In this document: positions 52,681 to 55,691 of the stretch, in pieces
Layout: each line of letters opens with the position of its first letter
How positions within the stretch are numbered: the first letter of the stretch is position 1
Assembly (NCBI GenBank): GCA_964016885.1
Contig: OZ024748.1
Span: forward strand, 28,458,001 to 28,522,000
DNA: 64,000 nucleotides
Source: Eledone cirrhosa
Lineage: Eukaryota
Reading direction: 5' to 3'
Notes under the pieces: generated by a model
Databases searched by the model: none
Seen by the model: only the letters and a program-made list of their open reading frames with translations
Told to the model about the DNA's origin: nothing
Program-made: the position numbers and the translations under genes

Positions 52681-52933
52681 ATCATATATGTATGTGTGTG
52701 TGTGTACATGTATGTGTATGTTATATGTGTGTGTGTATGTGTATGTATATGTATATATATATATATATATATATATATATATATATATATATATATATAC
52801 ATATACATATACATATATATATATATATATATATATATATATATATATATATATATATATACATTATGAAGAGAGAAGAAACATTTAGATATAATTAGTA
52901 ATAAAATGTATCATACCTAAACTGTTCCTAAAT

Positions 52934-53021
52934 TCCTCGACTACGTAGTTTCGTGGCATAAACAAAAACAATATATCAAAGATATAGAGTCCTTGCGAGG
53001 TCTGCCGACTTATCAAGAGGA
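52934..53021 (-). ncRNA. Type I hammerhead ribozyme (U3-A8 variant), unit 1
   Basis: tcctc TTGATAA gtcggca...tgccac GAAA ctacgta GTC gagga. Confidence 0.8.
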
Positions 53022-53525
53022 TACCTCATTTTACTAGTCTCAAGAACGCGTCCACACGACGTGAGAAAGAATCCCAAAAGGCGGAGGGGGAGATAGTCAC
53101 GCGATATAACGGTCGAGAAACAGAGCTAAGCCTCTTATAACCACGAAAAAAAATACCACGGAGGCGGAGGGGGTATTCATATCGAGGCCGTAGAAGAGGT
53201 AGTGAAGAAGGCGAGAAGTATGAGTAATGGAAGCTTTCCAGTTGTCCCCACACTTCAAAGATTGCTCGACCAGAGGGAGTTATTAATACATTTAGAAACA
53301 CACAGATACATGCGGACACACACATATATACATGAATGCATCCGCACCCAACTGTGAGTTAAGGGTGCCAACTTCACCGATGTTGCTCAATGAATGACTG
53401 GGACAGGCCAATTCAGTTTGAACCAGACTGAACCAGTATCAGAGTTAAAAATACATTATGAAGAGAGAAGAAACATTTAGATATAATTAGTAATAAAATG
53501 TATCATACCTAAACTGTTCCTAAAT

Positions 53526-53613
53526 TCCTCGACTACGTAGTTTCGTGGCATAAACAAAAACAATATATCAAAGATATAGAGTCCTTGCGAGGTCTGCCGA
53601 CTTATCAAGAGGA
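53526..53613 (-). ncRNA. Type I hammerhead ribozyme, unit 2
   Basis: Identical motif. Confidence 0.8.
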
Positions 53614-54124
53614 TACCTCATTTTACTAGTCTCAAGAACGCGTCCACACGACGTGAGAAAGAATCCCAAAAGGCGGAGGGGGAGATAGTCACGCGATATA
53701 ACGGTCGAGAAACAGAGCTAAGCCTCTTATAACCACGAAAAAAAAAAAAAAATACCACGGAGGCGGAGGGGGTATTCATATCGAGGCCGTAGAAGAGGTA
53801 GTGAAGAAGGCGAGAAGTATGAGTAATGGAAGCTTTCCAGTTGTCCCCACACTTCAAAGATTGCTCGACCAGAGGGAGTTATTAATACATTTAGAAACAC
53901 ACAGATACATGCGGACACACACATATATACATGAATGCATCCGCACCCAACTGTGAGTTAAGGGTGCCAACTTCACCGATGTTGCTCAATGAATGACTGG
54001 GACAGGCCAATTCAGTTTGAACCAGACTGAACCAGTATCAGAGTTAAAAATACATTATGAAGAGAGAAGAAACATTTAGATATAATTAGTAATAAAATGT
54101 ATCATACCTAAACTGTTCCTAAAT

Positions 54125-54212
54125 TCCTCGACTACGTAGTTTCGTGGCATAAACAAAAACAATATATCAAAGATATAGAGTCCTTGCGAGGTCTGCCGAC
54201 TTATCAAGAGGA
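54125..54212 (-). ncRNA. Type I hammerhead ribozyme, unit 3
   Basis: Identical motif. Confidence 0.8.
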
Positions 54213-55083
54213 TACCTCATTTTACTAGTCTCAAGAACGCGTCCACACGACGTGAGAAAGAATCCCAAAAGGCGGAGGGGGAGATAGTCACGCGATATAA
54301 CGGTCGAGAAACAGAGCTAAGCCTCTTATAACCACGAAAAAAAATACCACGGAGGCGGAGGGGGTATTCATATCGAGGCCGTAGAAGAGGTAGTGAAGAA
54401 GGCGAGAAGTATGAGTAATGGAAGCTTTCCAGTTGTCCCCACACTTCAAAGATTGCTCGACCAGAGGGAGTTATTAATACATTTAGAAACACACAGATAC
54501 ATGCGGACACACACATATATACATGAATGCATCCGCACCCAACTGTGAGTTAAGGGTGCCAACTTCACCGATGTTGCTCAATGAATGACTGGGACAGGCC
54601 AATTCAGTTTGAACCAGACTGAACCAGTATCAGAGTTAAAAATACATTATGTATTTTTAACTCTGATACTGGTTCAGTCTGGTTCAAACTGAATTGGCCT
54701 GTCCCAGTCATTCATTGAGCAACATCGGTGAAGTTGGCACCCTTAACTCACAGTTGGGTGCGGATGCATTCATGTATATATGTGTGTGTCCGCATGTATC
54801 TGTGTGTTTCTAAATGTATTAATAACTCCCTCTGGTCGAGCAATCTTTGAAGTGTGGGGACAACTGGAAAGCTTCCATTACTCATACTTCTCGCCTTCTT
54901 CACTACCTCTTCTACGGCCTCGATATGAATACTCCCTCCGCCTCCGTGGTATTTTTTTTCGTGGTTATAAGAGGCTTAGCTCTGTTTCTCGACCGTTATA
55001 TCGCGTGACTATCTCCCCCTCCGCCTTTTGGGATTCTTTCTCACGTCGTGTGGACGCGTTCTTGAGACTAGTAAAATGAGGTA

Positions 55084-55171
55084 TCCTCTTGATAAGTCGG
55101 CAGACCTCGCAAGGACTCTATATCTTTGATATATTGTTTTTGTTTATGCCACGAAACTACGTAGTCGAGGA
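55084..55171 (+). ncRNA. Type I hammerhead ribozyme, inverted unit
   Basis: Stem I 55084-88/55167-71; core 55089-95; stem II 55096-102/55147-52; GAAA 55153-56; cleavage predicted after C55166. Confidence 0.8.
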
Positions 55172-55691
55172 ATTTAGGAACAGTTTAGGTATGATACATT
55201 TTATTACTAATTATATCTAAATGTTTCTTCTCTCTTCATAATGTATTTTTAACTCTGATACTGGTTCAGTCTGGTTCAAACTGAATTGGCCTGTCCCAGT
55301 CATTCATTGAGCAACATCGGTGAAGTTGGCACACTTAACTCACAGTTGGGTGCGGATGCATTCATGTATATATGTGTGTGTCCGCATGTATCTGTGTGTT
55401 TCTAAATGTATTATATATATATATATATATATATATATATATATATATATATATATATATATATATATATAAATATATATATATATATATATATATATAT
55501 ATATATATATATATATATATATATATATATATATATATATATATATATATATATATATATATATATATATATATATATATATATATATATATATATATAT
55601 ATATATATATATATATATATATATATATATATATATATATATATATATATATATATTAAAATAACAGATTTTAGTCTTCAAATTTATTATT

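Follow-up and report, generated by a model that had tools for sequence, protein, structure and literature searches.

A non-coding hammerhead repeat of Eledone cirrhosa with Penelope-like insertion ends

The closest described systems to the repeat presented here are the metazoan non-LTR retrozymes and the Penelope-like elements (PLEs); published work on both is cited from the parts of the texts that were available. Retrozyme activity and circles have been shown for coral, mussel and axolotl (PMC7229834), whereas for the unit presented here they are predictions; as the template of animal retrozymes, circles are a published proposal that awaits demonstration. Reported retrozyme lengths are 170–400 nt (PMC7229834) or 51–972 bp, with a mean of 650 in fish (bioRxiv 10.64898/2026.07.22.740005), and about 5,000 copies were given for mussel (PMC7229834 / bioRxiv 10.64898/2026.07.22.740005). 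Plant LTR retrozymes carry a type III hammerhead in LTRs around a unique core, with a 4-bp TSD (bioRxiv 10.64898/2026.07.22.740005). Among PLEs, about 1,300 matches to Cercyon hammerheads with a U3-A8 core were reported in Schistosoma mansoni (PMC4209133), and how PLEs build their tandem, inverted and tailed insertions is described as a still open question (PMC8557442, PMC11167929).

The locus described here lies in a window of 64,000 nucleotides, by which we mean the whole stretch of DNA that was analysed. Apart from its variant core, the repeated unit is a non-LTR retrozyme by the working definition of bioRxiv 10.64898/2026.07.22.740005, with cleavage being predicted: the tandem units each hold a complete type I hammerhead motif, with a variant core and without an Rfam match, and the copies are dispersed, lack an LTR structure and are unattached to an autonomous ORF. 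Like metazoan non-LTR retrozymes, the family comprises non-coding tandem units with one type I hammerhead each, is present in thousands of copies, as in mussel, and has a proposed PLE origin; its monomer is likewise structured according to fold prediction (z = −6.0). A length of 592 nt, which the earlier note took to exceed that of known metazoan retrozymes, falls inside the published 51–972 bp (bioRxiv 10.64898/2026.07.22.740005). In contrast to these retrozymes, the unit combines a U3-A8 core with a stem II of 56 nt and would go undetected with canonical descriptors and Rfam. The available parts of PMC7229834 and bioRxiv 10.64898/2026.07.22.740005 describe neither fixed double ends nor head-to-head arms nor edited templates for metazoan retrozymes.

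With Neptune-type EN+ PLEs the unit shares 5' truncation, a head-to-head inverted copy, a tail at one end, microsatellite targets and a hammerhead upstream of the ends (PMC8557442, PMC11167929, PMC3846280), but it has no ORF, and what is repeated is the whole 591-nt RNA. Its tail comprises 167 nt, compared to 30–40 bp in the published PLE accounts available to us and about 65 nt in F1, an unrelated autonomous PLE family of the same genome. The Cercyon hammerheads show the same core covariation, a short stem I and a bulged, longer stem II; they are, however, minimal and mostly single (PMC4209133), whereas the unit possesses a palindromic stem III and forms tandem monomers. A plant LTR retrozyme was ruled out based on the type I motif, the tandem units and the lack of a unique core. 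The literature that we covered contained no cephalopod retrozyme and no edited retrozyme templates, and it describes neither this family nor strict end pairing in retrozymes. Octopus PLE families are reportedly listed in the supplement of Craig et al. While the retrozyme class is known, the value of the family lies in a testable genomic record of how Penelope enzymes copy such RNAs, as it represents thousands of nearly unmutated insertion records with 167 nt between the start sites.

The insertion in the window and its repeat family

Unit coordinates q1–592 correspond to window positions 53452 to 52861 on the minus strand. The insertion consists of three head-to-tail units, an inverted unit and a 169-bp tail, with (TA)n on both sides, and its features are:

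52742–52860, no strand: (TA)n microsatellite, left flank (target)
52861–53452, minus strand: unit 1, 592 bp, with the fixed end A (q592) as its 3' end at 52861
52934–53021, minus strand: type I hammerhead motif with U3-A8 core; predicted cut after 52939
53453–54051, minus strand: unit 2, 599 bp, A-run longer by 7 nt
53526–53613, minus strand: hammerhead motif, sequence identical to unit 1; predicted cut after 53531
54052–54643, minus strand: unit 3, 592 bp
54125–54212, minus strand: hammerhead motif, sequence identical to unit 1; predicted cut after 54130
54644–54652, no strand: head-to-head junction, 9-bp palindrome with its axis at 54648
54653–55244, plus strand: unit 4, the inverted arm, 592 bp, 1 substitution
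55084–55171, plus strand: hammerhead motif of the inverted arm, sequence as in unit 1; predicted cut after 55166
55245–55413, plus strand: tail, q1–169, stopping at the fixed end B (q167–169)
55412–55656, no strand: (TA)n microsatellite, right flank (target)

Between units 1 and 3 there is no difference, and the only one in unit 2 is the seven additional A of its A-run. The inverted arm, comprising the full unit and the tail, carries two substitutions, and both arms face outwards from the palindrome. This layout of 592-, 599- and 592-bp tandem units, with the length difference in an A-run and with an inverted full and partial unit, had been described in the earlier note and was confirmed. A read-through transcript of 53883–55413, from either strand, would fold into a 765-bp hairpin, which could be a source of small RNAs or a substrate for editing.

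The lack of a recognisable protein domain in the unit, also claimed in the earlier note, agrees with both the ORF and the blastx checks. The 110-aa ORF gave no Pfam match, ATG ORFs in natural multimers from three subfamilies did not exceed 76 aa, and blastx against 18 PLE proteins gave no match at E ≤ 1. An ORF with RT and GIY-YIG domains, the mark of an autonomous EN+ PLE, is not present in the unit. Coding on a circle was considered and rejected, since neither the ORFs nor the unit length (588–595) are kept among the copies.

Genome-wide, a 31-nt segment of the hammerhead has 5,045 exact matches in the 3.0-Gb genome, compared to none for the reversed control, and chance and assembly duplication are therefore excluded as the origin of the unit. 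As the first 100 exact matches on contig C1 belong to 46 loci, we extrapolate to approximately 2,300 loci in the genome. The unit is thus dispersed in thousands of copies, as had been anticipated, and is neither unique nor an assembly duplication. We analysed a first set of 76 loci, composed of the 46 loci of contig C1 and 30 chosen by best identity, and a second set of 67 loci picked with other patterns. Before counting, we removed one duplicated copy (L039), arms belonging to the older subfamily (L073) and eight repeat loci of the second set, and homopolymer, indel and microsatellite positions were excluded from the variant counts. Among the 76 loci, identity between copies is 95–100%; their 5' ends vary, and in nearly all cases (TA)n directly follows the 3' end. 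An older subfamily, approximately 80% identical to the unit, has kept the hammerhead motif. The unit is a young, abundant, non-coding 591-nt repeat family.

The hammerhead motif and signals of cleavage

A type I hammerhead frame occupies q432–519 of every full unit, with the predicted cut after q514, which amounts to four such motifs in the window. The frame is composed of a 5-bp stem I, the core UUGAUAA, a 6-bp stem II with a 44-nt hairpin insert, GAAA, a palindromic stem III and GUC. The type I hammerhead with a GUC site that the earlier note assigned to each full unit was found; its core is of the U3-A8 variant, in which the C3-G8 pair is replaced, and not CUGAnGA, which the note had left unstated. 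Its predicted minus-strand cuts at 54130, 53531 and 52939 were reproduced, with the plus-strand cut at 55166 as an additional one. A search with hammerhead models had been suggested as a check, and here the outcome was divided: the type I frame was located, but Rfam returned no hammerhead over the window, neither at gathering score nor at E ≤ 10. Rfam matches to miRNAs in the window were rejected, as they come from the long inverted repeat and from simple repeats.

We argue that the putative motif is real on the basis of three comparisons. The same U3-A8 core is published for PLE hammerheads of S. mansoni (PMC4209133), and the F1 family has a U3-A8 core in a compact frame. Moreover, the frame is conserved in the older subfamily, where only 1 of 45 frame positions is changed (a change that keeps a G-U pair) compared to 93 of 546 positions elsewhere (p = 0.003). 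In an alignment of 20 distinct hammerhead sequences, 97.9% of the cells were paired; no pair in this alignment was changed on both sides, and shuffles reached the observed score. Fold prediction gave a pairing probability of about 0 for stems I and III, whether units were folded in tandem or as a circle. Cleavage would thus need a dimer, co-transcriptional folding or the help of a protein. Genome patterns for a relative with a canonical core gave no match, and those for a relative with a short stem II gave two, which represent one deletion copy in tandem; this stem II deletion is private to its locus and present in two adjacent units.

UUGA-AA cores were also seen in several autonomous PLE families of this genome (L121:3452 and 8431 on the minus strand, and the 3' regions of the oriented L127, L137 and L140), while other families have canonical cores. 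The variant seems to be common here. The repeat family itself suggests that animal hammerheads are undercounted by descriptor and Rfam searches.

Concerning cleavage in vivo, the arms pass through the predicted cut site without a break. Among loci selected for an intact hammerhead, 3 of 111 arms start within 10 nt of the cut, compared to 3.9 expected. Junctions exactly at the predicted cut numbered 25 (from 38 matches, two duplicated pairs included); at two control positions 9 of 25 and 10 of 15 were junctions, and at a third 14 of the 30 read (81 matches, approximately 38 junctions by extrapolation). Hence, the count of arm 5' ends at the cut site lies above two controls and below the third, with no clear spike. 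Two clean monomer contigs of 620–621 nt, one in each of the runs X1 and X6, were rejected as evidence of expression, because a genome repeat with 113,853 copies occurs in the same runs at 10–100 times their depth, and trace host DNA explains them. Similar reservations exist for described systems: a lizard PLE mainly used uncleaved RNA as its in vitro substrate, and none of the RNA reads had its end at the cut (PMC11167929); of 9 Xenopus dimers, 8 failed to cleave (bioRxiv 10.64898/2026.07.22.740005).

Insertion ends and candidate helper elements

The 3' ends of the copies fall at two fixed sites, A (q592) and B (q167–169), which are 167 nt apart and each lie just 3' of a long predicted hairpin (q515–585 and q93–156, respectively). 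In the first set, 39 of the 76 loci were two-armed, with 37 A+B, no A+A, no B+B and two irregular insertions; the other 37 loci were one-armed, 24 of them with end A and 13 with end B. The second set of 67 loci comprised 35 A+B insertions, one true A+A, no B+B, three irregular, four edge-cut and one complex insertion as well as 23 one-armed ones. Taken together, 72 of 73 classifiable two-armed insertions were heterotypic, compared to 46% expected (p = 2e-23), and the window insertion is likewise of the A+B type. TA-to-unit junctions were found at identical ends in independent runs. The Penelope-type integration suggested in the earlier note is borne out by the two fixed 3' ends, the head-to-head arms, the 5' truncation and the AT-rich target. 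PLE insertions are known to carry a tail at just one of their ends (PMC8557442, PMC3846280), and in the lizard PLE two RT start sites were reported to define the tail in vitro, with both strands cleaved and a dimer predicted (PMC11167929).

Among the 37 two-armed loci of the first set, either arm may be the longer one and arm lengths are uncorrelated; in 10 of them neither arm is contained in the other, compared to 9 expected for independent arms. Based on these non-nested arms and uncorrelated lengths, priming from both DNA ends is favoured over fold-back. In 7 of the 37 loci the arms begin within 15 nt of each other, compared to 1.9 expected, and this excess of near-equal starts is compatible with joining at palindromes as well as with a share of fold-back. 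At one further locus (L089:4146-5327 and 7081-8262), A463T and G294C occur in both arms in opposite unit order, which may reflect conversion or an assembly artefact.

The genome contains 10,597 GIY-YIG candidates, of which 150 were scored and 50 loci read. Several PLE families were recognised in which the RT is followed by a CX4CxxC linker and then by GIY-YIG, one of them with an open frame of 1,096 aa. The PLEs of the 50 loci read share no sequence with the unit. The earlier note had also raised the case in which the unit is always the pLTR of a PLE ORF; no joined PLE coding sequence was found in 76 + 67 + 30 loci. As PLE sequence is neither shared nor joined, the unit is non-autonomous as far as sampled. 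The helper likely is a Neptune-type RT/endonuclease, a label that we base on the domain order and the linker motif. The F1 family resembles the unit in the position of its short end, approximately 80 nt after its cut site (78 nt in the unit), and in the long and short ends of its two-armed copies, seen in both of the two that were read.

Only one of the 50 GIY-YIG loci (L116) contains the unit, and it was rejected as a link to a helper: the unit forms a two-armed insertion there, and the arm closer to the ORF has the reverse orientation. Flanks of PLE-fragment loci were read for loci of the first set and for L263; the PLE fragments near units in L034, L041, L059, L069, L070, L075, L082, L148, L176 and L263 lie apart from them. 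At L042:4523-4640 and at L159, the 5' end of a unit adjoins the short end of an F1 fragment. This adjacency is probably due to nested use of one TA target, with a chimeric event as the alternative.

Template variants, mechanism and alternatives

Variants private to a locus are usually common to all of its units and to both arms. The clearest example is L060, in which A35G, A36G, A54G, A80G, A98G, A126G and A318G occur in every covering unit of both arms; these seven A>G changes are among ten differences from the family majority and run through 8 units. The string combining A80G and A98G occurs nine times in the genome, eight times in L060 and once on another subfamily background, and the assembly contains no source copy of the L060 haplotype. 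Since this haplotype recurs through all units, one modified monomer copied many times is the simplest reading. At a second locus (L058:3443-4393), both units carry a cluster of four A>G changes. The two positions at which the window departs from the family majority do so in L004 as well and are thus not private.

On the hammerhead strand, 28 of 116 A sites show A>G variants, whereas 17 of 183 T sites show T>C (p = 0.0008), and A>G accounts for 7 of the 11 variants that turn up on both subfamily backgrounds. At the A>G sites a 5'-G is depleted (p = 0.014), a 3'-G is enriched without significance (p = 0.11), and pairing is not significantly more frequent (p = 0.12). Avoidance of a 5'-G is a trait of ADAR editing. 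When shared variants are counted per locus, the numbers for A>G and T>C are similar, with 8 and 7 loci, respectively. The bias would fit ADAR editing, with an error bias of the RT as an alternative, and the shared haplotypes suggest that an edited monomer, probably a circle, may have been copied repeatedly. This in turn suggests that RNA edits can become heritable DNA repeats.

We consider it likely that the window shows one two-armed insertion of a non-autonomous hammerhead repeat, which a Neptune-like protein pasted into a TA microsatellite while copying the monomer repeatedly. That the repeat is a non-autonomous element mobilised by PLEs is the part held with high confidence. A monomer or circle as the template is fairly probable, and for twin priming at two sites the balance of the evidence is mildly favourable. 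In this scheme, the hammerhead strand would be transcribed as a multimer and cut by its hammerheads, probably as dimers via the palindromic stem III or with the help of a protein. Ligation of the monomer would then yield a circle, whose predicted fold hides the ribozyme, and some molecules would undergo A-to-I editing. The PLE protein, probably as a dimer, would cut both strands of the (TA)n target, and the two DNA ends would be primed on the same RNA at different sites, one at A and one at B. Each RT would travel round the monomer, writing tandem copies, and the two cDNAs would be joined head to head, or one would be lost, giving one-armed copies that end at A or B. The scheme predicts that the two DNA strands begin at different sites of the same molecule, one at A and one at B, and the family would provide a small natural substrate for in vitro work. 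More tentatively, and with somewhat less than even probability, each two-armed insertion may represent one RT dimer on one RNA circle, with fixed start sites, both enzymes rolling and the A-to-I edits of that circle written into every repeat; if true, RNA editing would feed the DNA evolution of the element.

Several of these results could also be read differently. The template might instead have been a linear multimer that was transcribed from a source array and stayed uncleaved, with the hammerhead as a leftover and the uniform arrays stemming from uniform sources or later homogenisation. The missing 5'-end spike at the cut, the preferred fold without the hammerhead and the role of uncleaved RNA as the main PLE substrate in vitro all speak for such a multimer. 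We nevertheless regard it as unlikely, as the L060 haplotype carries its seven A>G changes through 8 units of both arms without a source in the assembly, a private stem II deletion is found in two adjacent units, and the hammerhead frame was conserved across 20% divergence. Self-priming or fold-back of one cDNA, which has been proposed for the inverted arm of PLEs (PMC3846280), would account for the palindromic junctions, including that of the window, for the 7 of 37 loci with arms starting at most 15 nt apart and for the variants common to both arms. It appears improbable in view of the 10 of 37 loci with non-nested arms and of the longer arm lying on either side, and it leaves the pairing of an A end with a B end unexplained.

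It is very doubtful that the unit is instead the pLTR of an unsampled autonomous PLE and the loci truncated pLTR arrays. The U3-A8 core, the tail and the TA targeting are PLE traits, and the scored candidates are 150 of 10,597, with 50 read; in every multi-unit locus, however, the unit runs into itself upstream of the hammerhead, none of the 76 + 67 + 30 loci shows it joined to PLE coding sequence, and the one deletion copy is the sole relative with a short stem II or a canonical core. A DNA satellite or an assembly artefact without an RNA step would match the near-identical tandem units, and the difference of 7 A may be a sequencing error. With the dispersal, the fixed 3' and variable 5' ends, the strand-biased A>G changes and the matching TA-to-unit junctions in independent runs, this origin is hardly credible.

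Other elements were observed in the window. Just left of the insertion lies a broken LINE-type RT element (50840–52660, plus strand; RVT_1 at 51192–52202, E = 5e-19), whose RT belongs to a class other than that of PLEs and which is not joined to the unit. A Pif1 helicase fragment (50019–50504, minus strand; PF21530) is probably a Helitron remnant, and a tRNA-like match was found at 22737–22808 on the minus strand (Rfam RF00005, 40.8 bits). A short repeat at 55690–55890 and 59628–59782 is probably a SINE, a 32-nt piece of which has 113,853 exact copies in the genome.
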